Shown in pieces: positions 39,476 through 54,756 of a stretch of 64,000 nucleotides of DNA; positions within the stretch are counted from its first letter, which is position 1; each line of letters begins with the position of its first letter. The DNA is taken from the NCBI GenBank assembly GCA_031409655.1, contig JANNXQ010000195.1, positions 32,001 to 96,000 of the forward strand, read 5' to 3'. The notes under the pieces were generated by a model. That model was not told the DNA's origin, made no database searches, and saw only the letters and a list, made by a program, of their open reading frames with translations. This stretch comes from Chthoniobacteraceae bacterium (GTDB taxonomy: Bacteria; Verrucomicrobiota; Verrucomicrobiia; Chthoniobacterales; Chthoniobacteraceae). The position numbers and the translations under genes are program-made.

Positions 39476-40038
39476 AGAAGCTGATCGCCCTCTTCCTGCT
39501 GCTCGCGCCGACGTTCACTCAAGCGGCGGAAAAGCCCGCGGGCTACGACACCTTTCAGCTCATCCGCACACGCCCGATCTTCGATCCAAATCGCAAGCCG
39601 CCGAAGAAGGAGTCCGACCAGCCGCGCGCGGTGACCCCGTCCCGGCCGAAGTCGGTGCATCTCGCGCTCACGGGGACGATGGTCACGGAGGCGCGGAAGC
39701 TCGCGTTTTTCACCGGCTCGCGTTCCGAGTTTAATAAGATCGTCAGCGTGGGGGAGAAGCTCGGGGACTACACCGTCGCGACGATTACGGCCAGCGAGGT
39801 GAAATTGGACCAGGCGGGCAAGCCGACCGTGGTCACCATGGGCAAGCGTCTGCAGCTCGAAGGCACGGAAGCAGACGCCGTGGAACCTGAGCCCGCGCCC
39901 GCTGCACCGGCGGGCACCAGCGCCACGCCCGCGGCTGATGGCAGTGCCGCGCCCGCCGCCAGTCCACCGAGCGGCGGGAGCCCGAGCGACATTTTGAAAC
40001 GCATGATGGAACGCCGCGCCAAGGAGATAAAAAAATGA
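39472..40038 (+). CDS. GspC / PilP-like protein
   Basis: Signal, RPIFDP, LTGTM...AFF, VGEKLGDYTV..I...V.L (HR-domain-like); directly upstream of the secretin. Confidence 0.6.
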   Translation: MKKLIALFLLLAPTFTQAAEKPAGYDTFQLIRTRPIFDPNRKPPKKESDQPRAVTPSRPKSVHLALTGTMVTEARKLAFFTGSRSEFNKIVSVGEKLGDYTVATITASEVKLDQAGKPTVVTMGKRLQLEGTEADAVEPEPAPAAPAGTSATPAADGSAAPAASPPSGGSPSDILKRMMERRAKEIKK

Positions 40039-41684
40039 AAGACCCTCTAGCCATGAAACAAATCCACCCACACCGCTATCATGGATCGGAAGGCCGCACC
40101 CTATTTCTCCTCCTCCTCACGGCGCTGCTCGCCTGGACGCAGCCCGTCCAAGCGCAGGCGCCGCCGTTGCCGACTGCCCCAGACCCGAAGCCAAGTTTTG
40201 AAGTCGATCCACTCCGGGCACCTTCGAAGGCGATGCCCGTCCGCTCGGCGGTGGGTGCCGCGGCGGTGACCCCGCCGCAACCGAAGCAGGAGATCATGCT
40301 CAACTTCCAGGGAGCCTCGCTCAGCGACGTGCTCAACTATCTGAGTGAGGCGGCGGGTTTCGTCATCATCCAGGAGGCGCCGCTGACTGGCACGGTGAAC
40401 ATCGTCAGCCGTCAGCCCATCGGTCCGGAGGAGGCGGTCGATCTCCTCAATACGGTGCTCGTGGAGAAAGGCTTCATCGCCATCCGCAACGGCCGCATTT
40501 TGAAAATCGTGAACCGCAAAGATGCGCAGAAGCGCGACCTGCCAGTGCAGACCGGGAGCGACCCGGAGAAGATCCCGCGCAAGGATGAGATGGTGACGCA
40601 GATCCTGCCGCTGCGTTTCGGCGACGCGGCGAAGCTCGTGGAAAATCTCAAGCCGCTGTTACCCGATACCGCGACCATTAGCTCGAACGAAGGCAGTAAC
40701 GCGATCTTGATGACTGATACGCAGACCAATATCCGGCGTATCGCCGAGATCATCAAAGCGATCGACACCTCAGTAGCCAGCATCTCGACGATCAAGGTCT
40801 ATCCGCTGCAGTTTGCAAATGCGAAGGAGCTGGCCACGGTGGTGACGCAGCTCTTCCAGACGAATGCGACGAGCGGCAGCAGCCGGAGCCGCGACCGCGG
40901 GAGTAGTGGATTTCCGTTTCCCTTTCCTGGCAGTGATCGTGGCGGGGACCGAGGTGGCTCCAGTGGCGGGGACAGTGAAGCCCGCCAGGCGGGGTCGCGG
41001 GTCCTCGCGGTCGCGGACGATCAGAGTAATTCACTCATCGTCAGTGCGCCGGAGGATGTGATCCCGTCGATCACCGAGATCGTGACGCGGATCGACACGA
41101 GCATCACGGCAGTGACGGAGACGCGCATCTTCACTTTGAAACATGCCGATGCCACCGAGTTGGCGGAGATCCTGACCAATCTGTACAGCGACACTGGCAG
41201 CCAAAGTAATCGCAGCAGCAGCTCCAGTCGGGGCGGCAGAGATAGCGGCTCCAGTGGCGGGCCCGGTTTTCCGTTTGGAATGTTTGGTGGCGGATCGTCT
41301 TCGTCGCGATCGAGTTCCAGTGGCGACCAGAGCCAGCGTTCGCTCCAAGAGTCGAAGGTCGTGGCCGTGGGTGATCCGCGCACGAACTCCGTGCTCGTGA
41401 TCGCCGCGCGCGACACCCTCATGGAGATCGCCGAGATGATCGGGCGGCTCGATGCCACCGATGCCAAGAAGCAGCGCGTCTTCGTGCATTCCCTCGAACA
41501 CGCCGACGCCGAGAGCGTCGCCAATGTCCTGCGCGGCATGCTCGGCGATCAGACGGCGACGCAGAGTTCAGCGCAGAGCGGGGCCGCGCGACTGACCGAG
41601 CGCAGCGCGAACGGTGCGGCCATGGAATCGTCCTCCCAAGGAGTCGGCAGCGCGGGCGGAGGGCGCTCCTCCGGCGGACGATGA
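40035..41684 (+). CDS. gspD: Secretin N-terminal half (N0 + three N repeats + first half of last N domain)
   Basis: Signal peptide; LNFQGASL (N0); PLRFGDA, PLQFANA, LKHADA, LEHADA repeats; no secretin barrel. Confidence 0.85.
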   Translation: MKDPLAMKQIHPHRYHGSEGRTLFLLLLTALLAWTQPVQAQAPPLPTAPDPKPSFEVDPLRAPSKAMPVRSAVGAAAVTPPQPKQEIMLNFQGASLSDVLNYLSEAAGFVIIQEAPLTGTVNIVSRQPIGPEEAVDLLNTVLVEKGFIAIRNGRILKIVNRKDAQKRDLPVQTGSDPEKIPRKDEMVTQILPLRFGDAAKLVENLKPLLPDTATISSNEGSNAILMTDTQTNIRRIAEIIKAIDTSVASISTIKVYPLQFANAKELATVVTQLFQTNATSGSSRSRDRGSSGFPFPFPGSDRGGDRGGSSGGDSEARQAGSRVLAVADDQSNSLIVSAPEDVIPSITEIVTRIDTSITAVTETRIFTLKHADATELAEILTNLYSDTGSQSNRSSSSSRGGRDSGSSGGPGFPFGMFGGGSSSSRSSSSGDQSQRSLQESKVVAVGDPRTNSVLVIAARDTLMEIAEMIGRLDATDAKKQRVFVHSLEHADAESVANVLRGMLGDQTATQSSAQSGAARLTERSANGAAMESSSQGVGSAGGGRSSGGR

Positions 41685-43120
41685 ATCCAAACCTGATCAC
41701 TCCCATGCCCAAAAATTTCTCTCTCATTGCCGCTCTGTGCTTTCTGCACGTCTTCGCGCTCCTCGCTCCGCAGCTCAGCGCGCAAGTGAGCCGCGCCGGC
41801 AGTTCCGGGCGCACGACTTCGAGCTCACGGAGCAGTACGGGACGCTCGGTTTCATCCTCTGGCAGTCGCAGCAGCACCGGACAGCGCCAGTATCGCAGTA
41901 ATACCGAGCTCGGCGACGCGATGATCACCATCGATCCCGAGACGCGTTCGCTCGTCATCGTGACCGATGAAGACACGCACAACGAGATGTTGAACGTGAT
42001 CAAGACGCTCGATAAGCCCAAGCCGCAGGTGCTCATCAAAGTCGTCTTTCTGGAAGTAACGTATAACAAGGGTTCCGACATCGGCGTCGAAGGCACCTAC
42101 ACCTTCAATCTTGAAGGAGGGAAGACTGCGACCACGGGAACGCGCACCACCACGAATACCCAGGTCTCCGGCACGAAAACGACGACCACCTCGCTCGCGG
42201 AAACGCTGGGCTCCGCTGCCGCGCTCGGGCGGGCGGTCACCGGTGGGAGTGGATTCAATATTCCCGTCGCGGGCGTGAACGCGACGGGACTCATCGTGCG
42301 GGCGATCGGTGACGATTTCTCCGCGACCGTCCGGGCGCTTTCGACGCAGGGTAAGGTCGAGGTGCTCTCGCGGCCTTCCATTATGGCGCGGAATAATCAG
42401 GAGGCCGTCATTGTGGTCGGTTCCGAGATCCCATTCATCACCAACAGCCGGATCGACAATACCGGCAATACCATCAACACCGTCACCTATGACGATATTG
42501 GCATTATCCTCCGTGTTACTCCCTTCATTACTTCCGAAGGCACCGTGGAGATGATCGTCGCACCGGAGATTTCCTCGCTCACCGATCAGACCGTGCCGAT
42601 CTCCAATACGGTGAACTCTCCGGTGATCTCGAAGCGCTCTGCGGAAACCGTCGTGGTCACGCCGAATGGCAAGACCGTGGTCATCGGTGGCCTCATGCAG
42701 ACCCAGCGGATCGATTCCGTGCAAAAAATTCCGATCCTCGGTGATATTCCGATTCTCGGTTTCCCTTTCCGCCGCACCATCAAGAGCGACGAGAAGAAGG
42801 AACTCATGATTTTCCTCACGCCCACCATCGTCAGCGACCCCCGCGAGGTCGATGCGGTGAATGTGGACGAACTCGGAAAGACGGAACTCGTGGATCGGGC
42901 GTTTTCGGAAAAGGAAAAGTCGAAATTCCTCCAAGGCCTGCCCCTCATGCCGGAACCGGAATATGAGCCGGAGATAACGCCGGCTCCGCGAGCCACTGCC
43001 GTGCGGCGGACCTCCCCGAGTAAGTTGCCGACGGTGAAAGCGAGCAAGCCTGCTCCCGCTTCCGAGCCTGACGTGCGCAAGCCCGCGGCTGTCATTCGCG
43101 CCAAAGCCACGCCATTCTAA
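41681..43120 (+). CDS. gspD: Secretin C-terminal half (second half of last N domain + secretin barrel)
   Basis: Own signal peptide; IDPETRSLVI, LDKPKPQVLIK, LSRPSI..NNQEA.IVVG, GIILRVTP, VIGGL, KIPILGDIPILG. Confidence 0.9.
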   Translation: MNPNLITPMPKNFSLIAALCFLHVFALLAPQLSAQVSRAGSSGRTTSSSRSSTGRSVSSSGSRSSTGQRQYRSNTELGDAMITIDPETRSLVIVTDEDTHNEMLNVIKTLDKPKPQVLIKVVFLEVTYNKGSDIGVEGTYTFNLEGGKTATTGTRTTTNTQVSGTKTTTTSLAETLGSAAALGRAVTGGSGFNIPVAGVNATGLIVRAIGDDFSATVRALSTQGKVEVLSRPSIMARNNQEAVIVVGSEIPFITNSRIDNTGNTINTVTYDDIGIILRVTPFITSEGTVEMIVAPEISSLTDQTVPISNTVNSPVISKRSAETVVVTPNGKTVVIGGLMQTQRIDSVQKIPILGDIPILGFPFRRTIKSDEKKELMIFLTPTIVSDPREVDAVNVDELGKTELVDRAFSEKEKSKFLQGLPLMPEPEYEPEITPAPRATAVRRTSPSKLPTVKASKPAPASEPDVRKPAAVIRAKATPF

Positions 43121-43140: not shown

Positions 43141-43803
43141 ATGAATACGAATTCGTCTCTTTCCCGGCGTCATTTCCTCTCAGGTGTCGGCGGTGCTGCC
43201 GCACTTTTTGCGGTGCCCGGCGCGTTTGCGGAGGCACTCGTCCAGACTCCGCGTCAAACCGAGGGTCCTTTCTATCCCGACAAGCTTCCGCTCGATACGG
43301 ACAATGACCTGCTGATTCTAAACGATGCTCTCACCTCCGCGGTTGGTGAGGTGGCTTACTTGAGTGGGCGGATTCTCAGTCCGAGCGGTGAACCGGTGCG
43401 CAACGCGGTGGTCGAGATCTGGCAGTGCGACGCGAGCGGCGTCTATATTCACAGCAAGTCCGGCGGGTCGGCCGCGAAGCGGGACGCGAGTTTTCAGGGC
43501 TTCGGTCGCTTCGTCACGGGGAGCACAGGGGAGTATCTTTTCCGCACGATCAAGCCCGTGCCTTACGTCCCGCGCACTCCGCATATTCACTTCAAAGTCA
43601 AAGCGCGGGGGAAAGAGCTGCTCACGACGCAATGCTATATCAAAGGTCATCCGGGTAATGAAAAAGATGGCCTCTGGAAGAGGACGGGTGACGAGAAGAT
43701 GCGGAGCTTGGTGACGGTGGACTTCGCCCCGCTGCCAGGAGCGAAGGCTGGAGAACTTGCCGCGCGGTTCGATCTGGTCCTTGGCGTGACGCCGGAGGCT
43801 TGA
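43141..43803 (+). CDS. Tat-exported intradiol ring-cleavage dioxygenase family protein
   Basis: SRRHFL Tat motif; EGPFY, EIWQCDASGVY, TIKPVPY..RTPHIH (Tyr/Tyr/His/His ligands present). Confidence 0.88.
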   Translation: MNTNSSLSRRHFLSGVGGAAALFAVPGAFAEALVQTPRQTEGPFYPDKLPLDTDNDLLILNDALTSAVGEVAYLSGRILSPSGEPVRNAVVEIWQCDASGVYIHSKSGGSAAKRDASFQGFGRFVTGSTGEYLFRTIKPVPYVPRTPHIHFKVKARGKELLTTQCYIKGHPGNEKDGLWKRTGDEKMRSLVTVDFAPLPGAKAGELAARFDLVLGVTPEA

Positions 43804-43855: not shown

Positions 43856-46800
43856 CTAGCCGCGCGTCGCGAGTTTTGCGCCAGCCTGTTCGAGCCAAGC
43901 CGCGTCGGGCATGGCGTAGGGGCGGAAGGTTTCGAGGGTGCCTTCCTGTTCGTTGGCGAGCAGGGCGCGGTGCAGGCCGAGGGTGGCGGCTTTCGGCGTA
44001 TCGATGAGGCTCGCGGAGTCGTTGGCGCTCATTTGGAAGATGACCCGCATTTCAAATTCGCTCAGCGCCTTCCGGCTCATTGCGCGGTTTACGTTGTTAA
44101 ACGTATCGACGGTCGCGAAGAGATGCAGCCCGTGCGCGCTGCCTTCGGTGATGAGTTCGTTGAACTGGGCGCCGGGGTTGCCGGTGCTCTCTTCGTCGCC
44201 GGACGAAAAGCTGAAGTCATCTTCATGCCGGAGCTTCTTGAACTTCTGCAGGCCATGGATGAACAGGAAGACCGCAGGCTCGTTGCGGGAGGATTCTCCG
44301 GCGGCGTTGCGAGTCTTCAGATCCGCGGCGAGTCCACCCATCACCTCGGCAGCATCGTGACCCCGCGCCAGCGTCAGGCGGCCGGGAAGGGCGGCGGCGA
44401 GTTGGTCGATAAAGGTGGCTTCGGGCGTCTCGGGATTCGCACCGTGGAGCAGGATGAACCTCGCGGTCCCGGCGGGATACTGCGCGGCGAGTGCGACGAT
44501 GGAGACGCCGATCAAAGTCAGCGCGTCGTCGTCGCGCTGACCGACAAGGAGCAGGTGATTGCCGCTCTGCCGCTGAAAGACCGCTTCGGTCGGACCTTTG
44601 ATGGAATTGGGCGCGCCGAGCCAGCAGCGACCCACCGCGGGCGCGGTAGTCGGTTTCGATTCGAGGGCCGCGCGCAAGCGTTCATTCTCGCGGATGTCGG
44701 CCGGTGAATTACCTTCGAAAACGATCGGGCCTGGGTGCTGATCGTGATGCTGCTCGGCGAGTGCGCGCACCTTGTCGAGCCACTGATCGCGCTCTTCATC
44801 CGGCAGCCACACGACCTGGAAGGGGCTGTTCCCCTCGACCGCACCGGAGGCGTCGTTGTAGATGCCTTCGCCCGGTCGCGAGAGGAGGCGCGGCGCGGAA
44901 TTATTGTCATCCATGATGAGATAGGCGTCGGCTTCGTTGCATTGCAGGGCCACGCGGATGGCCATCTGACCGAGCGTTGCGCGGGCGAGCGTGTAAGCAC
45001 CGCCCAGGGTCTGCGAGCCGAGGATCACATGGATGCCAAAGGCGCGGCCCTGACGCACGATGCGATCGAAGAGCAGCGCGGCGCCTTGCGAGACGTTGTC
45101 GTCCTCAACGAAGAACTCCTGGAATTCATCGATCATCAGCAGCGAGCGCGGCATCGGTTCGGCCCCACCCTCGCGCTTGTAGCCCGCGAGATCCTGCACG
45201 CCGAGTTTGCGGAAAATGTCTCCGCGCCGTTTCAACTCATCGTCCACGCGTTGCAGCACACTGAGCGCAAATTCCCGGTCGCTTTCAATGGCCACGACGC
45301 GCGCATGCGGAAGGCGTTTCGTGGCGTAGCACTTAAATTCCACGCCTTTCTTAAAGTCGATGAGGTAAAACTCCACCTGCTCGGGACTGCACGCGAGGGC
45401 GAGGTTCGTGATGATGACGTGGAAGAGCGTGGATTTTCCTGAGCCCGTCTTGCCGGCGAAAAGCGCATGCTGGCGCGTGCCTTTGCCGATCGCGAGATAC
45501 TGCAATTTCGTCGCCCCGGTGCGGCCCACGGCGATGCGCAGTTCGGTGGTCGTGTCGTGCGTCCACATCTCCTCGGGCTTCGGCGCGATCTGGAGGAAAG
45601 GCACCTCGACGCGATTCGAGTCGATGCTGGCTTTGCCGATCTTATGGACGAGCGCAACGGCGAGATCGGCGTCGGGAGGGGCATCGAGCGCGGCCGTGGC
45701 CGTGATCGCGGAGTGCGTGGTCTGGACCACGAGCGCGTCGCCCTGACGGCGGAGGCAGACGCTGCTCTTGCGGAGTTCAGCGGCGACGAAACCATCCGGC
45801 ATCGACTGCCGCGGATCCCAATGGATGAGCGTGAAGACGCCGCAGCGCGGACCGCTGGCGGCGATGCTTTGCAGACGTTTCACCGCGGACTCGCTGAAGC
45901 TTGCGGGGAAATCCGCGACGACGAGAAAGTGATATTTCTCCGCCACGCTGCCTGCCTTGGCATTGTACTCCGTAATCGTGGCGAACTCATTGCGGAGATA
46001 CATCTGGATGACTTTCTCGATGTGTTCATTGAGGTCGTCGAGCCGCTCTTCGATTTGCTCGCGCTGCGTCCAGATGCGGCGGTTGATGAGGCTTTCCTCG
46101 TGATCCCCGAGATGCATGAGTCCGGCGAAGTTTTGGCCGAGCCCGACGGGATCGATGATCGTGAAGCTGAGCTTCCCCGGCGGCGTGGTGGCGAGCAGGC
46201 GGAGGATGGAGTTGTTGATCGTCCCGACGACCGAGGGCTCGCTCGAGTCGTTCGTTTCAAAGAGGAGCGAACCTTCTGCCGGGAAAGAGAGGGCGAGGGG
46301 AATGGAGACGCGGGGCCCGCCGGGCAGGCCGAGGCGGGGATCCTTGGGGCCGGGCGAAGCGGCCTGCGTGAGGTCGAGTTCCAGCGCGCCAAATTTCACC
46401 GCGGGAGCGAAAGCCGTCGGTGCCTTCCATGCTTCCACCATCTCCGAATCCCACGCTGGGAAGCGCCCCTCGGTCCCCGCTTTTATCTCCTCGATCGCGG
46501 CATGCACCGGGAGGATCTCGCGCTGCCAGTCCGCTTCGAGCGCGCCCCAGCGGGCGGCTTCATCGGCAGCAAAGGCCGCGAGGTCCGCCGCGTGCGCTTC
46601 GCTGAGCGTCGTGCGCCGGGTGTCGCTGGCGCTCTGGATCTCGCCGAGCGCCGCGGTGCGTCCCTCCGCGAGCGTCGTGATTTTCGGCGCGAGCATCTGT
46701 TCATTGCGGGCAAAGGCACCGGGGAGTTGCTGCCGGAGTTTTTCCCGCCGAGCGGCGGCAAATTCACGCTCGAGGTCATCGGCGCGATTCCACTCCTCCT

Positions 46801-47761
46801 GGATTCCCTGCGCGAGGGCATCGTGCTCCTCCTGGAGGCGCTGCCGCTCCGCTGCGTGATGCGCCGTGGCCTCCGCGGCACTCGCATCATGCGCCCGCAC
46901 GGCCATCCCGAGCGCACCCGCCAGCTCCGAAGCCGTGGCTTTCGACTGACTGAGCCCGATCCGGTGAATGAGGACGACGAGGATGATCGCAACGAGCGTC
47001 GCTCCACCAGCGATCATCGGCGCGTCGGGATTTGCCCGCAGGACGAGCCAGACGATCAACCCCACGACGGCCAGGATCGGGAGCACCGCCGGGAGCGGCG
47101 CGTAGCTAAAGAGACGCGGCAGGGCGAAGCGGCGGAACTGGCCCAGCTTCTCCTCCGCGACCGCGAGCTGACTCTTGAGTTCAGTGAGTGAAGCCTGGTG
47201 ATCGCCCGTGCCGATGGGCCCGCCCGCCGGCGCCGTGCGTTCACTGCGCAGCATCTTCTGAAAGGAACTGCAGCCGCCAAAAGCATTCCACGCGCGCTGC
47301 TCGAGCTTGCCATGCGCCGTGCGCTGCTCGCCGAGCCGCGCGACGAATTCCGCAAAATTCCCGTCCTCCGCCTTCAAGTCCACCGGCAGCGCCTTTTCCG
47401 CGCGGAAGTGCCGCATTTGCAGCCCGGTGAGGTACTTCTCCTTTTCATGCTGCGCCCGGGTCTTGAGCTTTTGCATGCTGTTCGTGTGCTTCTGCTGGAT
47501 GCCCATCCGCCGTTCCTCGTGAAAGGCCCGGACGCGCGTTTCCTCCGCCGTCACGCCCTCCTCGGTCTCGGCGACCTGCGCCGCGAGCCGGGTCTCGAGG
47601 GCCGCGAGCGCCTCCCGGTTTCGCCGATTCAGCGCGGAACGGCGGATGTTCAGGTCGCGCGTCAGTTGCTCCTCGCGTTGGGCAAACTCCGCCGCGGTCA
47701 GTTTCAGTTTTCCGAAGAGGTCGAGACTCCGGGTGACTCGTAGGTCGATGTCGCTATTCAC
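43856..47761 (-). CDS. FtsK/SpoIIIE-family ATPase, EccC/EssC-like type VII secretion coupling protein
   Basis: Coiled coil, two TMs, coiled coil, degenerate ATPase fold, intact domain (HALFAGKTGSGKS, YLIDFKKG, IDEFQ, GRAFGIH), degenerate C-terminal domain; GTG 47761. Confidence 0.88.
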   Translation of the reverse strand: MNSDIDLRVTRSLDLFGKLKLTAAEFAQREEQLTRDLNIRRSALNRRNREALAALETRLAAQVAETEEGVTAEETRVRAFHEERRMGIQQKHTNSMQKLKTRAQHEKEKYLTGLQMRHFRAEKALPVDLKAEDGNFAEFVARLGEQRTAHGKLEQRAWNAFGGCSSFQKMLRSERTAPAGGPIGTGDHQASLTELKSQLAVAEEKLGQFRRFALPRLFSYAPLPAVLPILAVVGLIVWLVLRANPDAPMIAGGATLVAIILVVLIHRIGLSQSKATASELAGALGMAVRAHDASAAEATAHHAAERQRLQEEHDALAQGIQEEWNRADDLEREFAAARREKLRQQLPGAFARNEQMLAPKITTLAEGRTAALGEIQSASDTRRTTLSEAHAADLAAFAADEAARWGALEADWQREILPVHAAIEEIKAGTEGRFPAWDSEMVEAWKAPTAFAPAVKFGALELDLTQAASPGPKDPRLGLPGGPRVSIPLALSFPAEGSLLFETNDSSEPSVVGTINNSILRLLATTPPGKLSFTIIDPVGLGQNFAGLMHLGDHEESLINRRIWTQREQIEERLDDLNEHIEKVIQMYLRNEFATITEYNAKAGSVAEKYHFLVVADFPASFSESAVKRLQSIAASGPRCGVFTLIHWDPRQSMPDGFVAAELRKSSVCLRRQGDALVVQTTHSAITATAALDAPPDADLAVALVHKIGKASIDSNRVEVPFLQIAPKPEEMWTHDTTTELRIAVGRTGATKLQYLAIGKGTRQHALFAGKTGSGKSTLFHVIITNLALACSPEQVEFYLIDFKKGVEFKCYATKRLPHARVVAIESDREFALSVLQRVDDELKRRGDIFRKLGVQDLAGYKREGGAEPMPRSLLMIDEFQEFFVEDDNVSQGAALLFDRIVRQGRAFGIHVILGSQTLGGAYTLARATLGQMAIRVALQCNEADAYLIMDDNNSAPRLLSRPGEGIYNDASGAVEGNSPFQVVWLPDEERDQWLDKVRALAEQHHDQHPGPIVFEGNSPADIRENERLRAALESKPTTAPAVGRCWLGAPNSIKGPTEAVFQRQSGNHLLLVGQRDDDALTLIGVSIVALAAQYPAGTARFILLHGANPETPEATFIDQLAAALPGRLTLARGHDAAEVMGGLAADLKTRNAAGESSRNEPAVFLFIHGLQKFKKLRHEDDFSFSSGDEESTGNPGAQFNELITEGSAHGLHLFATVDTFNNVNRAMSRKALSEFEMRVIFQMSANDSASLIDTPKAATLGLHRALLANEQEGTLETFRPYAMPDAAWLEQAGAKLATRG

Positions 47762-47963
47762 AATCGATGCGGACCTTTCGCAAAAGCCCATCCAGTTCCT
47801 CGATCACCGCCGCCGCGCGGGCCAGGTGATGCGGGAGATCCTCCAGATAGGTGTGTTCAAATTCCCGAGCCTTCACGTCCCGCCACGATTCCTTCGTCTG
47901 CTCCCACTCGGCCTTCAGCTCCTTCGCCGCCTGCAGCAGATTCGACGCGCTCGCCCGGCTCAT
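47754..47963 (-). CDS. Small WXG100-like protein (69 aa, W-R-D)
   Basis: Helical hairpin with central ESWRDVKAREF; overlaps both neighbours. Confidence 0.7.
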   Translation of the reverse strand: MSRASASNLLQAAKELKAEWEQTKESWRDVKAREFEHTYLEDLPHHLARAAAVIEELDGLLRKVRIDCE

Positions 47964-48472
47964 GATCCGGCGGCCTCCGGCGGGGGCCCCGCGAGCTTCG
48001 GCGCCGTCTCCGCGTAAGCTTCCAGCGTCTTCTGCGCCTGCACCAGAAAGGCGATTCCCTTCGGCAGATCGAAATCGAGCACGAAGCGCAAACTCTCGAT
48101 TCGTTTCAGCAGCGGCTCCGCAGAGGCGTCAAAATCCCGGGTCCACTTCTTCACCAGGCGCATCTTTTTCTCCGCGTGATCCAGCGCCTCCTTCGCCTTG
48201 CGCACCGCATTCTGCTGCGCCGAGATGTTGTCACGCAGATTGGAAAGTTTCGCACTTAGCAGCTCCTGCTGCGCCGCATCCAGGAGCTTCCGCTGCTTCC
48301 GGATTTCCTGCTCCCAGTGGGTCCGCCGATCATTCTGCAGCCACCCGCGCGTCCGCCGCACCTCGTCGCCCACCTCATCCACGCTGCGATGCGCGTGACC
48401 GAGAAAGATGATGAGATTTGCCCGGAACGCCTCCAGCGCGTCGAGCGACGTGACATGCGCCTGCGGTGCCAT
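47960..48472 (-). CDS. Coiled-coil protein, extended WXG100-like (170 aa)
   Basis: All-helical; termini resemble those of the adjacent WXG100 protein. Confidence 0.7.
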   Translation of the reverse strand: MAPQAHVTSLDALEAFRANLIIFLGHAHRSVDEVGDEVRRTRGWLQNDRRTHWEQEIRKQRKLLDAAQQELLSAKLSNLRDNISAQQNAVRKAKEALDHAEKKMRLVKKWTRDFDASAEPLLKRIESLRFVLDFDLPKGIAFLVQAQKTLEAYAETAPKLAGPPPEAAGS

Positions 48473-48475
48473 GGC

Positions 48476-48748
48476 CTAGCGCTGATCCAGATATTCCTCG
48501 ATGCGTTGCGCCTTGCGCAGGAGGTAGGGTGTGTGTTTTTCCGACACCTCGACGAATTTTTTCAGCACCTTCATCGTCGTCAGGAATTCCTCCGCAAACT
48601 TCTCCGCATCCTGATCCTGCCAGGTGCTCCCGAGCGCCGCAAAGCGCGCCTGCAAAGCCCCCGCCCGGACCTGCACGTCGTCATTGAAGCGCTTCAGCTC
48701 TTTGGCGAAGCGCCGCACTTCCTCCGGGTCCATGATCGCTTGAGCCAT
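48476..48748 (-). CDS. WXG100 family type VII secretion target (90 aa, W-Q-D)
   Basis: ATG 48748: MAQAIMDPEEVRRFA..LGSTWQDQDAEKF..LLRKAQRIEEYL; size and central W typical of WXG100. Confidence 0.85.
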   Translation of the reverse strand: MAQAIMDPEEVRRFAKELKRFNDDVQVRAGALQARFAALGSTWQDQDAEKFAEEFLTTMKVLKKFVEVSEKHTPYLLRKAQRIEEYLDQR

Positions 48749-48928
48749 AGGGAATATTGCTGGGGTTTTAGGATTCGCTCCAAGGCTACTCGCAGCGTGA
48801 GCGCCCGGGATCTTTGCAGGTGGGGAATCTCTATGAACTCCCTGCGAAACGCAACGCGCGAGAGCCGCGAGCGGATTGTTGGTTGTCGAAAGGGCAAGAC
48901 CGGCGATTTTCCCGCCCTTGGAAATTGC

Positions 48929-51673
48929 ATGATCGACGTCCTCTACCAGCGCGGCCTCGAACTTCCGGCCCACGGGCTCTGGCTCGATCCGTGGGAGGCG
49001 CGGCCGTTTGCTTTTGTCTCCCATGCGCACAGCGATCACACCGCGCGGCACGCGGAGATCATCGCCAGTGTGGGCACGGCGCGGTTGATGCAGGCGCGCC
49101 TGGGTGGCGTGCGGCGGGAGCAAGTGCTGGAGTTTGGGGAGCGGCGGGAGTTTGGGAATTTCGCGATCACGCTCTTGCCGGCGGGACATATCTTTGGCTC
49201 GGCGCAGGCGTTCATCGAGAGCGCGGCGGGGACGCTTTTGTACACCGGTGATTTCAAGCTGCGTCACGGACTCTCCGCGGAACCCGCCGAATGGCGGCAG
49301 GCAGACACCTTGATCATGGAGACGACCTACGGCCTGCCGAAGTATCGGATGCCGCCGACGGAGGAGGTGCTCGCGCGAATGATCGCGTTTTGCCAGGAAA
49401 CGCTGGAGGACGGTGCGGTGCCGGTGCTGCTCGGGTATTCGCTGGGCAAGTCGCAGGAGATCCTCTGCGCGTTGCTCGCGGCGGGGCTGACGCCGATGCT
49501 GCACGGGGCGGTGTGGAAGATGACGGAGATCTACCGGCAGCTTCGGCCAGGTTTCCCGACTGGTTACGAACCTTATGCGGCTGGTGAAGTCGCGGGGAAG
49601 GTGCTGGTCTGCCCGCCGAGTGCGAATCGGACGGTGATGGTCACGCGGATCAAGAATAGGCGGGTGGCCTCGCTGACGGGTTGGGCGCTCGATCCGGGGG
49701 CGAAGTATCGGCTGCAATGCGATGCCGCTTTTCCACTCACGGATCACGCGGACTATCCGGACCTGCTCCGCTACGTGGAACTCGTGCAGCCAAAGCGCGT
49801 GCTCACTTTGCATGGCTTTGCGGCGGCGTTTGCGCGGGACCTGCGGGCGCGGGGAGTGGAAGCGTGGGCCTTGAGCGAGGATAACCAACTGGAACTCGCC
49901 TTACCCACGGAGGAGAAGCAGCCGCGGATTTCGCAGATGGCGCGGATTTCTGAAACGAGCGCCGCACCCGTGTTCTCGGGGCCATCCGCGGTGTCCTTTT
50001 CAGCGGTCGCGGAGTTTGCGGCTTTTGCCGAAGCTGGCGAACGCATCGCCTCGACGACGAGCAAGCTCAAGAAGACGGCCGTGCTCAGCGAGTATCTTCG
50101 TTCGCTGGACGCCGCGGCGTTGCCGATCGCGGCGGTCTATCTCACCGGCCACGCCTTTGCGCAGGCGGAGGCGAAGGCGCTGCAAGTGGGCGGCGCGGTG
50201 ATCCGGCAGGCGCTCCTGACCGTGAGTGGCTTGAGCGCAGGGGAGTTTCGGACTATCTCGCGCACCCACGCAGATGCGGGGAAGACGGCTTACGAAGTGC
50301 TCCTCGAGCGCACGACTCCGCAGCCGTTTAGCCTCGTCCAGTCGCGGGAGTTTTTCGCCGCGCTCCAGGCCGCGCGCGGTCCTTTGGCAAAAGGCGAACT
50401 CCTGCAGGCGCGCCTCGCGACCCTCGCGCCGCTGGCCGCGAGCTACGTCGTCCGGATCGTCACCGGCGACCTGCGCATTGGGTTGAAAAGCGGGCTGGTG
50501 GAGGAGGCTATCGCCGCGGCGTTTGACGAGCCAGCGAGCAGCGTGCGCCAGGCCCACATGCTCACGGGCGATCTCGGCGAAGTGGCCACGCGGGCGGCGC
50601 AGCACACGCTCGGCGAGGCGACGTTGCGCCTCTTTCATCCGATCCAGTGCATGCTCGCCAGTCCTGAGCCGACGGCGGCGGCGATCTGGGCGCGGCTTTC
50701 CGAACTCGATCCCCAGAGCATCACTTCGCCCGCCTGGGCCGAGGAAAAATACGACGGCATCCGCGCGCAGCTTCATGTCGCCGGTGGGCGGGTGGAAATT
50801 TTTTCGCGCGATCTCCGCCCCTTGACTGGCGAGTTCGCCGATCTCGCGAGCGTGGCCGGCCAGTTTGCTCGCCCGGCGATTCTCGATGGTGAACTGCTCG
50901 CTTTCGATGACGGTCGGCGGCTCACCTTTTTCGATCTGCAAAAGCGGCTCGGACGCAAGACGGAGAACGATCTTTTCCTCGCGGCGAGCGCTGTGCCGGT
51001 GATCTTCAAAGCCTTCGACTTGCTCTTTCTCGACGGCACGGCGCTGCTCGATCGCCCCTTGCACGAACGTCGCACTTTGCTCGAAAGCCTCGCCCTCCCG
51101 CCGCGACTCGAGGTCGCGCCCAGATTCGCGGTGGCCTCGGCGGACGAGGTGGAGGCGGCTTTTGCCGCAGCGCGCAAGCGGGGTCACGAAGGGCTCATCG
51201 TCAAAGAATGCGCGAGCCTCTACACGCCGGGGCGGCGGGGTCAGGCTTGGCTGAAGTTTAAAAAGGAACTCGCCACGCTCGACGTCGTGGTCGTGGGCGC
51301 GGAGCAGGGCCATGGCAAACGCAGCCACGTGCTGAGTGACTACACTTTTGCCGTCCGCGACGATGCCACCGGCGGGCTGCTCACGATCGGGAAGGCCTAC
51401 TCCGGCCTCACCGACCTGGAGATCGAGGAACTCACGGAACACTTCACGGCCACGACAGTCGCGCGTCGGGGGAAGTTCCGCGAAGTGCATCCCGAGATCG
51501 TCCTGGAGATCGCCTTCGATTCCATCCAGCCAAGCGCGCGGCACGCCAGTGGACTTGCGATGCGCTTCCCGAGGATCAAAGGCATCCGCCGGGATAAGAC
51601 GCCCGCGGAGATCGATACGCTGAGTGCGGCGCGGATGCTGGTGGCGGGGCAAAGGACGAAGGATGAAGGATGA
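48929..51673 (+). CDS. Fusion of ligase-associated MBL-fold exonuclease and ATP-dependent DNA ligase
   Basis: SHAHSDH, AGHIFGSA, YTGDF, ETTYG, DHAD; ligase EEKYDGIR, LDGEL, AFDLL, EGLIVK, WLKFK, MRFPRI..IRRDK; ATG 48929. Confidence 0.92.
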   Translation: MIDVLYQRGLELPAHGLWLDPWEARPFAFVSHAHSDHTARHAEIIASVGTARLMQARLGGVRREQVLEFGERREFGNFAITLLPAGHIFGSAQAFIESAAGTLLYTGDFKLRHGLSAEPAEWRQADTLIMETTYGLPKYRMPPTEEVLARMIAFCQETLEDGAVPVLLGYSLGKSQEILCALLAAGLTPMLHGAVWKMTEIYRQLRPGFPTGYEPYAAGEVAGKVLVCPPSANRTVMVTRIKNRRVASLTGWALDPGAKYRLQCDAAFPLTDHADYPDLLRYVELVQPKRVLTLHGFAAAFARDLRARGVEAWALSEDNQLELALPTEEKQPRISQMARISETSAAPVFSGPSAVSFSAVAEFAAFAEAGERIASTTSKLKKTAVLSEYLRSLDAAALPIAAVYLTGHAFAQAEAKALQVGGAVIRQALLTVSGLSAGEFRTISRTHADAGKTAYEVLLERTTPQPFSLVQSREFFAALQAARGPLAKGELLQARLATLAPLAASYVVRIVTGDLRIGLKSGLVEEAIAAAFDEPASSVRQAHMLTGDLGEVATRAAQHTLGEATLRLFHPIQCMLASPEPTAAAIWARLSELDPQSITSPAWAEEKYDGIRAQLHVAGGRVEIFSRDLRPLTGEFADLASVAGQFARPAILDGELLAFDDGRRLTFFDLQKRLGRKTENDLFLAASAVPVIFKAFDLLFLDGTALLDRPLHERRTLLESLALPPRLEVAPRFAVASADEVEAAFAAARKRGHEGLIVKECASLYTPGRRGQAWLKFKKELATLDVVVVGAEQGHGKRSHVLSDYTFAVRDDATGGLLTIGKAYSGLTDLEIEELTEHFTATTVARRGKFREVHPEIVLEIAFDSIQPSARHASGLAMRFPRIKGIRRDKTPAEIDTLSAARMLVAGQRTKDEG
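49920..49991. repeat. Nonamer-repeat palindrome remnant in the exonuclease-ligase linker
   Basis: CGCRGAT at 49923, 49932, 49941 (9-bp period); CCGCGGAT / ATCCGCGG inverted pair. Confidence 0.5.
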
Positions 51674-51755: not shown

Positions 51756-52547
51756 ATGGATCGCCTCCTGATCGCGTCCACTTTCTGTTTCCTGTTAGGG
51801 TTTGCTTACACCATGCACGCCTTGGGAGCCCGCGTGTACCGGCCTTCCCGGTTAAACTTCTTCGCCATCCTCGGCGGCTTTCTTTTTCAGACCATGTGGC
51901 TCTCGCAGCGCGGCCAGTTGCTCGGCCGCTGCCCGCTCACAAACTTCTTCGAGGTCCTCATCTTCCTCGCCTGGTCCATGGTCTTGCTCTACCTCGCGAT
52001 CGGCACCTCCTACCGCCTGTCCCTGCTCGGCGTCTTCACCTCGCCGCTCGTTTTCCTTTTTCAACTTGGCGCGATGCTCATGGTCCCGGATCATCTGGCA
52101 AAGCCGCGCGGCGGGCTCAATCCCTGGCTCGAAGTCCACGCCGCGATCTCGGTCATCGCCTACGGAGCCTTTGCCCTGGCGGGCGTTGCGGGACTCATGT
52201 TTCTCGTCCAGGAGCGGCAACTGAAGACGCGGAAACTGCACTCGATCTTCCACCATTTACCGCCCATCCACGACCTCGCCATCGCCAATGGGCGCTTGCT
52301 CCTGACGGGCTTTGGCCTGCTGGCGATCGGCATCGGCGCGGGCTTTTCCATGGGGAATCTCATGGCGCATCGCGGGGCTCTCTACTGGTCCGTGGGCGTC
52401 TGGATGCTGTATGGGTTCGTCGTCGCCGCGTGGTGGCTGCGCAAGATCAGCGGGCGGCGCATGGCGTGGCTTTCCGTGAGCGCGTTTGCCTTCGCGCTCC
52501 TGACCCTTGGGGGGCTAATCTCCCTCGGCAAACCGGGTTCCTTCTGA
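51756..52547 (+). CDS. Cytochrome c assembly protein family (CcsA/HemX-like) membrane protein
   Basis: Multi-TM; PLTNFFE, WLEVHA, AYGAF, QERQLK; directly upstream of hemA; ATG 51756. Confidence 0.8.
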   Translation: MDRLLIASTFCFLLGFAYTMHALGARVYRPSRLNFFAILGGFLFQTMWLSQRGQLLGRCPLTNFFEVLIFLAWSMVLLYLAIGTSYRLSLLGVFTSPLVFLFQLGAMLMVPDHLAKPRGGLNPWLEVHAAISVIAYGAFALAGVAGLMFLVQERQLKTRKLHSIFHHLPPIHDLAIANGRLLLTGFGLLAIGIGAGFSMGNLMAHRGALYWSVGVWMLYGFVVAAWWLRKISGRRMAWLSVSAFAFALLTLGGLISLGKPGSF

Positions 52548-52550
52548 CTG

Positions 52551-53627
52551 ATGGAAATCCTCTGCCTCGGCCTCAGCCATCACACTGCGCCCATCGAAGT
52601 GCGCGAGAGATTTGCCGTGCCGGACGCCGAACTGGGCCCGGCCGCGGCGCAGCTCGCGAAGGCGACTGGGGTCAGCGAGGCGGTGATCGTCTCGACCTGC
52701 AATCGCGTGGAATACTACGTCGCCGCGGAGGACGCTGCGGCGGGGTTCGATGCCGTCCGGAATTTCGTCGCAGCGCGCGTGGCGACGCCGGAGGGCGAGG
52801 CCTTTTTCCGCCACGCGACGGGGCAGAGCATCCGCCACCTTTTCCGCGTCGTCGGTGGCTTGGAGTCGATGGTGCTCGGTGAGACCGAGATCCTCGGCCA
52901 GGTGAAAAAAGCCTATCTGGCCGCGCAGACCGGCGGCGCCACTTCGCGGCATCTGAACAAGCTTTTCCAACGCGCCTTCAACGTCGCCAAAGAGGTGCGC
53001 ACAAATACGAACATCACGCGCGGCAGCGTCAGCGTCGGCAGCGCCGCGGTGGAGCTGGCGGAGAAAATTTTTGGCAAGCTCCAGCACTGCCACGTCATGA
53101 TCCTCGGCGCGGGCGAGACCAGCGAACTGACGGCCGGCGCGCTCCATGCGCGGGGTGTGAAGTCGATCTTCGTCGCGAATCGGAGTTACGATCGGGCCGC
53201 TGCACTCGCGGAGAAAATGGGTGGTAAGGCGATTCACTTCGATGGCTGGCAGGCGGAGTTTCACGACGTGGATATTCTCATCGGCTCGACCGCCGCGCCG
53301 CATCACGTCCTTACGGCTGCTCAGCTCGCACCCATCATGCGCCAGCGCCCGGATCGTCCGCTTTTTTGCATCGACCTCGCCGTGCCGCGCGACATCGACC
53401 CCGCAGCCAATGACCTCGACGGAGTTTATGTTTATGACATCGATTCGCTCCAGGCCATCGCCAGCCACTCGATGAATATCCGCCGCCAGGAAGTGACGAT
53501 CTGCGAACAAATGATCGAGCGGCACGTCGTGGAGTTTGGTGAATGGCTCGCTGGCGGCAGCACCCAGGCGGGATTGCGCTACTCCAGTGCGGTGAGCGGC
53601 AGTGCTCCGGAGGGCGTGAAACCGTGA
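52551..53627 (+). CDS. hemA: Glutamyl-tRNA reductase (short C-terminus)
   Basis: GLSHHTAP, STCNRVE, HLFRV..GLESMVLGETEILGQVK, GAGE, DLAVPRDI. Confidence 0.95.
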   Translation: MEILCLGLSHHTAPIEVRERFAVPDAELGPAAAQLAKATGVSEAVIVSTCNRVEYYVAAEDAAAGFDAVRNFVAARVATPEGEAFFRHATGQSIRHLFRVVGGLESMVLGETEILGQVKKAYLAAQTGGATSRHLNKLFQRAFNVAKEVRTNTNITRGSVSVGSAAVELAEKIFGKLQHCHVMILGAGETSELTAGALHARGVKSIFVANRSYDRAAALAEKMGGKAIHFDGWQAEFHDVDILIGSTAAPHHVLTAAQLAPIMRQRPDRPLFCIDLAVPRDIDPAANDLDGVYVYDIDSLQAIASHSMNIRRQEVTICEQMIERHVVEFGEWLAGGSTQAGLRYSSAVSGSAPEGVKP

Positions 53628-53680
53628 GGCAGGAGAAGTGTGAGGGATTTGAGGCGCCGCGCGTGCTTTGCGGGACGGAG

Positions 53681-53780
53681 AAACGCCAAACTTCAAACTT
53701 CAAATTTCAAACGCCAAACGGTGGGCGTGCGTGCTCTGGAAAATTTGGCGTTTGGCGTTTGGCGTTTGAAGTTTGGCGCT
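53681..53780. repeat. Heptamer inverted-repeat hairpin (AAACGCC/AAACTTC)n / (GGCGTTT/GAAGTTT)n
   Basis: Five units plus aaacg, spacer, four units plus ggcg; between hemA and hemC. Confidence 0.88.
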
Positions 53781-53823
53781 CCTTTGTCGGGTTCTCGGCG
53801 CCGGGGCATTTGCTTTTCCGCCC

Positions 53824-54756
53824 ATGAACACCTTCCACCTTGGCACCCGCGGTTCCGCCCTCGCCCTGGCCCAAGCCGAACTCACGGAACGCGCCCTCGC
53901 CCTCGCCCTCCCGCAGCTCCCGACCGAGCGGAAAATCTTCATTACGCGCGGCGACAAGAAGCTCGATCTGAGCCTTCTCAAAGCGAACGAGGCCGGCGGC
54001 AAAGGCCTTTTCACCAAGGAACTCGAAGACGCGCTGCTCCGGGGCGAGATCGATGTTGCCGTGCATTCGCTCAAGGATCTGCCTGGCCATAATCCGCCGG
54101 GACTCGACATCACCGCCGTGCTCCCGCGGGCCCCGACCGCGGATGTGCTCATCGCCAAAACCGCCGGAGGTTTCGACGCGCTGCCCCACGGCGCGCGCCT
54201 TGGCACCAGCAGCGTCCGCCGCGCGCGGCAACTCCGCTGGCTGCGCCCCGATCTCCAGATCCAGGAATGGCGCGGCAATGTGCAGACGCGCCTGCGCAAA
54301 CTCGCGGCGGCGGAAGACATCGCTGGCATTCTCCTCGCGCAGGCTGGCCTGGAGCGCCTCGGCTTCGACTTAAAGGATGGGGCCCTCGTCTTTGAGGAAA
54401 CAGTCTTCCACATTGATCCACTCGGCGGGCGATTGCTGCCGGCGATCGGGCAGGGAGCCATTGCCCTTCAAAGCCGGGCTGATCGCCCCGAAGTCCGCGC
54501 GATTTTGGAAAAGATCGATCACCGCGAAACGCACATCGCCATCCGCGCCGAACGCGAATTGCAGCGCCTGCTTTCCGGCGACTGCGCCATGCCCGTCGGT
54601 GCTCTCACGACCCTGCGCGGCGACCGGCTCCATTTGCGCGCGATCCTTTTCCCCGCCGACGAAGCGCACTCCCCGAAGCTCGCGGAGGCGGAGGGCGCAG
54701 CCACCACGCCGGAGTCGGTCGCGGCCGCGGTCTTCGCGCAACTCGAGGCGAAGTAG
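53824..54756 (+). CDS. hemC: Hydroxymethylbilane synthase (porphobilinogen deaminase)
   Basis: GTRGSALALAQ, KGLFTKELE, AVHSLKD, GTSSVRR, RGNVQTRL, GQGAI, GDC.MP; ATG 53824. Confidence 0.95.
   Translation: MNTFHLGTRGSALALAQAELTERALALALPQLPTERKIFITRGDKKLDLSLLKANEAGGKGLFTKELEDALLRGEIDVAVHSLKDLPGHNPPGLDITAVLPRAPTADVLIAKTAGGFDALPHGARLGTSSVRRARQLRWLRPDLQIQEWRGNVQTRLRKLAAAEDIAGILLAQAGLERLGFDLKDGALVFEETVFHIDPLGGRLLPAIGQGAIALQSRADRPEVRAILEKIDHRETHIAIRAERELQRLLSGDCAMPVGALTTLRGDRLHLRAILFPADEAHSPKLAEAEGAATTPESVAAAVFAQLEAK

Follow-up and report, generated by a model that had tools for sequence, protein, structure and literature searches.

The window analyzed here is a stretch of 64,000 nucleotides from the genome of a Chthoniobacteraceae bacterium of the phylum Verrucomicrobiota (assembly GCA_031409655.1, contig JANNXQ010000195.1). 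At positions 43856..48748 it contains four minus-strand open reading frames (ORFs) encoding a 90-aa protein of the WXG100 family, a 170-aa helical protein, a 69-aa protein, and a 1301-aa FtsK-type ATPase (Table 1). A preliminary description, made from the DNA letters alone, had read these genes as a minimal module resembling type VII secretion systems (T7SS). All the ORFs were located, with the sizes and tight coupling it had given: a 3-nt gap separates the genes of the 90-aa and 170-aa proteins, those of the 170-aa and 69-aa proteins overlap by 4 nt, and those of the 69-aa protein and the ATPase by 8 nt. No sigma-70-like promoter was found for the module, and terminators were not in excess.

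Scanning of species-representative genomes revealed 203 loci with a relative of the ATPase, of which the best 80, nearly all titled Verrucomicrobiota, were kept; 62 of them were testable, having a near-full-length ATPase and more than 1.3 kb of upstream sequence. The gene order 90-aa protein, 170-aa protein, 69-aa protein, ATPase was kept in 60 of the 62 testable loci, as well as in 13 of the 14 loci of the nearest relatives of the genome (the 14th was cut by a contig end), and therefore the arrangement is not a product of chance. The W-x-D motif was found in 64/64 copies of the first protein and in 64/64 copies of the third. A gene-neighborhood survey of the kind that the preliminary description had proposed thus bears out both the four-gene order and the motif. 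In one locus (L069, upstream of 7275) a 90-aa gene is missing from the operon head; in another (L013, upstream of 7305) an ATPase devoid of transmembrane (TM) helices has no small genes upstream, and the second gene is on another contig of the same genome.

The 90-aa protein is the most conserved part of the module, being 67–88% identical to its homologues in related loci. In a phylum-wide sample it was matched in 11 of 301 genomes, including its own, with one match marginal and two belonging to TerY-P-type loci. The nearest relatives of the ATPase are titled Chthoniobacteraceae, Spartobacteria or Verrucomicrobiae, while the ESM Atlas cluster closest to the 170-aa protein comprises 2908 members, most often of Planctomycetota. 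No relative of the module was found among viral contigs. The flanks differ almost everywhere and the tally across the phylum is patchy, which might suggest mobility, yet the ATPase is carried by 17 of 24 genomes of the host's own family and the guanine-cytosine content of the module is like that of the remainder of the window. The module is real and conserved; within one family it occurs frequently, while its distribution over the phylum is uneven.

Table 1. Genes of the module and domains of its ATPase (positions in the window)
Feature	Positions	Strand	Basis
WXG100-family protein, HP0062 type, 90 aa, STWQD	48476..48748	-	Pfam PF06013 and PDB match
170-aa protein, predicted single long helical hairpin	47960..48472	-	AlphaFold2 model
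69-aa W-x-D protein, ESWRD, likely a short-armed WXG100-like hairpin	47754..47963	-	motif and profile ranking
1301-aa EccC/EssC-like FtsK ATPase, GTG start	43856..47761	-	Pfam FtsK_SpoIIIE and model
Two predicted TM helices midway along the N-terminal coiled-coil region, ATPase residues 223-265	46967..47095	-	hydropathy, alignments, tree
First RecA-like domain, about residues 431-720, without Walker A	45602..46471	-	structural match to EccC5 DUF domain
Central ATPase domain, predicted to be active, with Walker A (770-777), Walker B (D878-E879), and an invariant R906	44732..45601	-	
Third RecA-like domain, without Walker A lysine, invariant C-terminal R-P-Y	43859..44731	-	

Proteins encoded by the module

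The 90-aa protein matched the Pfam family WXG100 (PF06013) above the cut-off, with an E value of 1.3e-9, and has no fused domain; the assignment made in the preliminary description thus holds, as does that of the ATPase to FtsK_SpoIIIE. The best PDB match of the 90-aa protein, found by profile search, is Helicobacter pylori HP0062 (3FX7, E 4e-10). The turn of the hairpin contains W43-x-D45 and the C-terminal part I83-x-x-Y86-L87. Both elements are present in 64/64 homologues and occupy the positions of W43-x-G45 and V83-x-x-x-D87 of EsxA, in a register that is based on ungapped HMMER alignments, with other acidic residues nearby at 84, 85, and 88. The host genome, which is 94.9% complete, contains a single WXG100 gene.

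For the 170-aa protein, AlphaFold2 predicted two helices (residues 3-77 and 80-156) and a short Pro/Ala tail, with a predicted local distance difference test score (pLDDT) of 90.9. The protein matched no Pfam or NCBIfam family over the cut-off. Fold search with the model returned generic coiled coils only, and no LXG, PPE or Esp chains were among the matches. Kinship to ESCRT-III or SMC proteins was considered and dropped, such fold matches being generic hairpins. The best 150 of its 2609 relatives are 109–244 aa long, and the five long tails inspected were of low complexity; no longer fusions appeared in the search range of 343–2000 aa, which is weak evidence. The protein has no toxin domain and is followed by no immunity gene. 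It also matched a 433-member, mostly planctomycetal ESM Atlas cluster of proteins of about 353 aa (score 0.83), of which 64% carry an Imm33-like domain; this cluster may represent a fused form of the hairpin and is a lead only.

Judged by gene order, the slot of the 170-aa gene holds a nuclease with a helical carrier in the related loci L081, L082, L085, and L086. On a Helicobacter plasmid (L082), the second slot encodes a WHH nuclease and is followed by an SMI1/KNR4 immunity gene, the order of genes being the same. In Caballeronia and two Verrucomicrobiota genomes, it encodes a 436–442-aa protein followed by a gene of 110–132 codons, within a VWA or TerY-P locus, in agreement with what Bell et al. 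2024 describe (PMC11090510). The positional match of the 170-aa protein to these carrier nucleases is clear. Comparison of the 170-aa family with the 90-aa protein by hhalign was not significant. The two verrucomicrobial loci (L085, 7462-19500; L086, 5272-12013) represent a TM-less form consisting of a VWA gene, a WXD protein, the 436–442-aa helical protein with a putative nuclease domain, a small gene, a hairpin, and the ATPase, and L085 continues with phosphatase-like and kinase-like genes.

The preliminary description had treated the 69-aa protein as a second WXG100-like protein with Asp in place of Gly. Its motif is indeed invariant, while kinship to WXG100 is weakly supported: it had no Pfam match of its own, PF06013 was matched by 2 of 42 members of its family (best E 0.014), and hhalign against the 90-aa protein was not significant (probability 2.6%). 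In a search of about 73,400 sequences, the family profile placed WXD/WXG proteins 3rd, 5th, and 6th (E 0.01–0.85). Its near-invariant D/E-C-E end (47754-47763) overlaps the start codon of the ATPase gene, so this conservation may be imposed by the gene overlap rather than by protein function.

The ATPase matched FtsK_SpoIIIE (E 1.6e-31), while the EccCa, EccCb, and EssC models were matched below their cut-offs. It consists of an N-terminal coiled coil, a TM hairpin, a further coiled coil, and three RecA-like domains (degenerate, active, and degenerate). The two hydrophobic helices comprise residues 223-241 and 247-265 according to hydropathy. The surrounding regions, residues 1-210 and 276-430, are poorly conserved (22–23% identity) and are probably coiled coil as judged from their composition. 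Across relatives, identity is 56% for the first RecA-like domain, 79% for the middle one, and 54% for the third. Walker A and B are intact only in the middle domain, where K776, D878, E879, and R906 are invariant in 71/71 near-full-length relatives, whereas domains 1 and 3 lack the Walker A lysine; ATP hydrolysis is thus predicted to be confined to the middle domain.

The AlphaFold2 model of the ATPase covers residues 431-1295 (pLDDT 83). Its best Foldseek match is EccC (4NH0, E 2e-29 over 967 columns), compared with 1.6e-11 for FtsK; together with the conserved gene order, this best whole-chain match upholds the view of a conserved minimal T7-like module. The first domain of the model aligned with the DUF domain of EccC5 (8RIN) at a VIA-align Z of 15.0, with a root mean square deviation of 4.0 over 217 residues (model range 1-284); its sequence profile found no match in the PDB, and this likeness comes from the model alone. 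The third domain aligned with distal domains of EccC and EssC at Z 17.7–22.5, and its profile matched EssC/EccC chains weakly (E 0.0015–0.13). EccC consists of a DUF domain and three more domains (PMC8131196), and in the simplest reading of the model the ATPase would have a DUF-like domain, an active domain, and one distal domain, that is, one fewer than EccC.

Related three-domain ATPases are encoded on a Rhodococcus plasmid (L083, 6489-11919) and a Deinococcus plasmid (L084, 7785-12587), where small helical genes are located downstream and not upstream; the Rhodococcus locus adjoins TerD-family genes. A second FtsK-like motor of the host genome (contig C194, 31735-32091) is probably an ordinary DNA translocase.

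Known systems and genomic neighborhood

A bioinformatic precedent for such modules was acknowledged in the preliminary description, which knew of no functional study; the former was understated. Zhang et al. 2012 (PMC3482391, Table 1 note 6) described a type with a solo WXG protein and a YueA-like ATPase with three HerA/FtsK domains, the middle domain alone being active, named verrucomicrobia and planctomycetes among its carriers, and used the term "mobile versions of T7SS". The module studied here has the same features: a solo WXG100 protein, a three-domain ATPase in which only the middle domain carries catalytic motifs, and a host from a named lineage. It is therefore of a kind already known from comparative genomics and not a new discovery. 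That note itself gives no gene count, TM hairpin, long-hairpin protein, 69-aa protein or mechanism. As to mobility, no mobility genes are among the conserved neighbors of the module.

HP0062 (PDB 3FX7 and 2GTS) has W-R-D in place of WXG, forms a dimer, and is clustered with the FtsK/SpoIIIE-like HP0066, the two having been called a minimal type VII set (PMC3397514, PMC4978471). HP0062 is the best structural match of the 90-aa protein, and the pair shares with the module the W-x-D motif and the FtsK neighbor. The Helicobacter locus L082 differs in its WHH nuclease and SMI1/KNR4 immunity gene and in a shorter ATPase with no detected TM segment.

A TM-less, nuclease-bearing form was described by Bell et al. 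2024 (PMC11090510), who also refer to stand-alone forms, citing Anantharaman et al. 2012. This TerY-P/CoCoNuT form resembles the module in having three ATPase domains, just the central one being active, a long N-terminal coiled coil, two WXG100-like proteins, and the same gene order. As described there, it lacks TM helices and contains a coiled-coil restriction-like nuclease and a DNA-mimic-like gene, whereas the module encloses a TM hairpin in its coiled coil and lacks a nuclease, a fifth gene, and a TerY-P triad. Its second gene stops past the hairpin and is followed by the 69-aa gene with none in between, and the flanks encode a ligase and a dioxygenase.

With T7SSa (ESX) and T7SSb (Ess/Yuk) the module shares a WXG100 protein and a membrane-anchored multi-domain FtsK ATPase of the EccC fold. 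It differs from them in having three instead of four RecA-like domains, a TM hairpin surrounded by some 350 residues of coiled coil, and a diderm host. Five partner or substrate families of known T7SS were not found. No matches to EssA (PF10661), EssB (PF10140), EsaB/YukD (PF08817), LXG (PF04740), EccB (PF05108), or EccD, sought through the YukD-like family PF08817, were found in the 94.9% complete genome, the controls being positive. EccE (PF11203) was likewise not matched in the genome, nor was it matched in the control genomes. The module thus falls outside T7SSa, T7SSb, and the CoCoNuT-associated form. The variants T7SSc-j are described only for Gram-positives in the relevant part of Garrett et al. 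2024 (PMC11217815).

Upstream of the module is a divergent gene (~48914-51673, plus strand) whose product joins a metallo-beta-lactamase-fold/RMMBL region to an ATP-dependent DNA ligase; this gene is not a conserved neighbor. Further on, genes for a cytochrome c assembly protein, glutamyl-tRNA reductase, and porphobilinogen deaminase stand in a row (51756-54756, plus strand). On the other side, a gene convergent with that of the ATPase (43141-43803, plus strand) encodes an intradiol dioxygenase-like protein that matched a Tat signal weakly, and past it there is a type II secretion cluster with a secretin, which ends 0.7 kb from the ATPase stop codon. The secretin is split over two overlapping plus-strand ORFs (40035-41684 and 41681-43120), the first encoding N0 and four Secretin_N domains and the second one N domain and the secretin domain. 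As the preliminary description had stated, neither toxin nor immunity genes adjoin the module in the window. In a flank survey made by ORF clustering and reading, without a library scan of each gene, the commonest flanking gene reached at most 9 of the 81 compared loci; no conserved neighbor of any kind emerged.

Possible function of the module

The reading that we favor, with confidence slightly short of even, is that the module is a minimal toxin-free T7-like exporter of its own helical bundle. The EccC-like ATPase would likely form a ring at the inner membrane and export a rod-shaped bundle of the three small helical proteins, using ATP hydrolysis predicted in the middle domain only. By analogy with the dimeric HP0062, the 90-aa protein would form an EsxA-like dimer; the 170-aa hairpin, judging by its relatives, may be an effector carrier without a toxin tip; and the 69-aa protein could accompany this hairpin in the way that Lap proteins accompany LXG toxins. 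The W-x-D and I-x-x-Y-L surfaces would form a recognition code of their own, replacing WxG and hydrophobic-x-x-x-D. As the module is accompanied by no outer-membrane channel, export would end in the periplasm or the inner membrane.

We favor export because EccC is the best Foldseek match of the ATPase and the first domain overlays EccC5's DUF domain, and because the Helicobacter relative pairs a nuclease with an immunity gene in the second slot, a pairing typical of exported toxins (PMC3482391). The two-helix segment is kept in 77 of 84 genome-derived relatives, and TM helices of EccC gate the ESX-5 pore (PMC8131196). In Streptococcus intermedius, translocation requires the Walker motifs of only one EssC domain, and the export of other substrates depends on EsxA, itself a conserved substrate (PMC13355648). 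Zhang et al. regard such modules as mobile T7SS versions (PMC3482391). The gene order is fixed in nearly all testable loci.

Other evidence weighs against this reading. The export signal of S. intermedius EsxA consists of W43-x-G45 and an acid at 87, and the D87A substitution blocks export (PMC13355648). In the 90-aa protein both halves are altered (G45 to D and D87 to L), and the canonical bipartite signal, WxG plus hydrophobic-x-x-x-D, is absent in register; the essential acid may have shifted from the C-terminal helix to the hairpin turn. By VIA-align, the ATPase model aligned with EccC over 735 residues at Z 22.2 and with a single FtsK domain over 267 residues at Z 24.4, so that by Z alone the latter equals or slightly exceeds EccC. 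The 170-aa protein shows weak homology to effector carriers: one of six tested carriers was matched at E 8e-4 (threshold <0.001) among about 73,400 decoys, and hhalign against the TerY-P-type nuclease carriers was not significant. Profile searches revealed no second copy of any of the three small proteins in the host genome; neither there nor in five other genomes, each with a single carrier gene, is there a cargo domain or a second carrier. No secretion report for any member and no functional study of the diderm module was found in the literature searched, which did not extend to subscription journals and supplements.

A further difficulty is the loss of the membrane anchor. Both TM helices have been removed by a clean in-frame deletion of about 50 residues in 6 of 71 relatives of the first scan and 1 of 13 nearest relatives (7/84). 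In a FastTree phylogeny of the motor domains built from 28 chosen rows, these are seven separate changes, all forced by well-supported branches. The ratio of nonsynonymous to synonymous substitution rates (dN/dS) in the motor was 0.05–0.08 for three pairs with a TM-less member and 0.08–0.12 for two TM-bearing pairs; by this measure, the motor of TM-less forms is still under purifying selection. The three small genes are retained in six of the seven TM-less loci. The distant ATPases of the TerY-P type and those of Helicobacter, Rhodococcus, and Deinococcus also have no detected TM segment. Because the hairpin has been lost repeatedly, the pore element of known T7SS is dispensable in this ATPase family; given the pore-gating role of the EccC helices in ESX-5 (PMC8131196), this speaks against the known mechanism being simply repeated here and weakens a simple "membrane translocase" reading.

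Several explanations of the deletions were examined and rejected. Assembly error was discarded, as four of the six TM-less forms looked up have a further cluster member of similar short length, and the deletion is shared by the six short cluster members checked. Direct repeats on either side of the TM segment did not account for the deletions (mean run 6.3 versus 6.3 in a control region, 60 genes), and replacement of the hairpin by an amphipathic helix found no support, the moments being low (0.15–0.33) in six variants. Among metagenome contigs, TM-less forms numbered 0 of 25, this set being 28 rows minus two misaligned core fragments and one out-of-frame row.

The main rival, which we consider rather improbable though it must be taken seriously, is an intracellular ATP-driven remodeller or switch, in which the ring, tethered to the inner membrane or near it, would hold the helical bundle and dismantle it upon a stress or phage signal and nothing would cross the membrane. 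In the TerY-P/CoCoNuT relatives it would free a nuclease inside the cell, while in the toxin-free form of the Planctomycetes-Verrucomicrobia-Chlamydiae group the long hairpin would target the membrane or a partner whose gene lies elsewhere. Seven independent and replicated TM deletions under unchanged selection speak for such a device, and so does the absence of the canonical signal in register and of any membrane scaffold gene traveling with the module. Relatives lacking TM helices, two of them in Verrucomicrobiota, reside in TerY-P/CoCoNuT defense loci, and Bell et al. 2024 deem a different mechanism likely for TM-less forms (PMC11090510). However, the 80 flanks, as far as clustering and ORF reading go, share no neighbor and contain mostly ordinary genes rather than defense islands; PADLOC gave only generic FtsK/HerA matches and nothing for the two W-x-D proteins. 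Moreover, most relatives retain the TM hairpin, and presence in 17 of the 24 family genomes is steadier than that of most defense cassettes.

Two further possibilities appear much weaker than either export of the bundle or its remodelling. A DNA translocase of the FtsK, TcpA or HerA type, in which the small proteins have a structural or regulatory role, would agree with the middle domain being a true FtsK motor, with FtsK and TcpA giving the top Z for single domains, and with the PADLOC models SspH and mad8 FtsK matching that domain. But the string of three domains fits EccC/EssC and not a single-domain FtsK, a WXG100 protein is the constant partner, no gene for a relaxase, integrase or nuclease is conserved alongside, and the genome has its separate FtsK-like gene on contig C194; we regard this option as very unlikely. 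Equally hard to credit is a two-membrane route in which the module passes its substrates to the neighboring type II secretin. The nearby secretin, on which the preliminary description had drawn, and the presence of GspE, GspF or GspK near 7 of 80 related loci speak for it, although two of these seven loci supplied the queries and four belong to one clade, to be set beside a random-window mean of 2.1 (95th percentile 5). Against it, a secretin was absent from the flanks of 80/80 related loci, and no type II secretion genes were found at 14/14 loci of the nearest relatives, so the supposed link to the neighboring secretin does not stand, though a secretin encoded elsewhere in the genome might serve.

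What the analysis adds to the published type is the failure of the secretin link, the lack of matches in the genome to five known partner or substrate families and to a second carrier, the toxin-free second slot without an immunity gene, the sevenfold loss of the TM hairpin, and the altered EsxA signal. A bolder variant of the preferred export reading, to which we give little credence, is a channel-independent type VII branch, in which the TM helices would be an optional tether and the three-protein rod, serving as its own conduit, would be driven into the inner membrane or through it, guided by a rewired signal with the acid moved to the turn. If true, the toxin-free set would rank as the most compact type VII machine and as the first demonstrated at work within a Gram-negative envelope. 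At stake is whether any secretion takes place through type VII-like systems in Gram-negative-type bacteria, and what constitutes the irreducible core of T7SS. The four-gene set is small, order-fixed, and toxin-free, so the whole of it could be expressed in a laboratory strain, and natural variants with and without the TM hairpin offer a ready test of the ATPase helices as a pore. The optional anchor and the altered export signal thus make a long-standing question directly testable.

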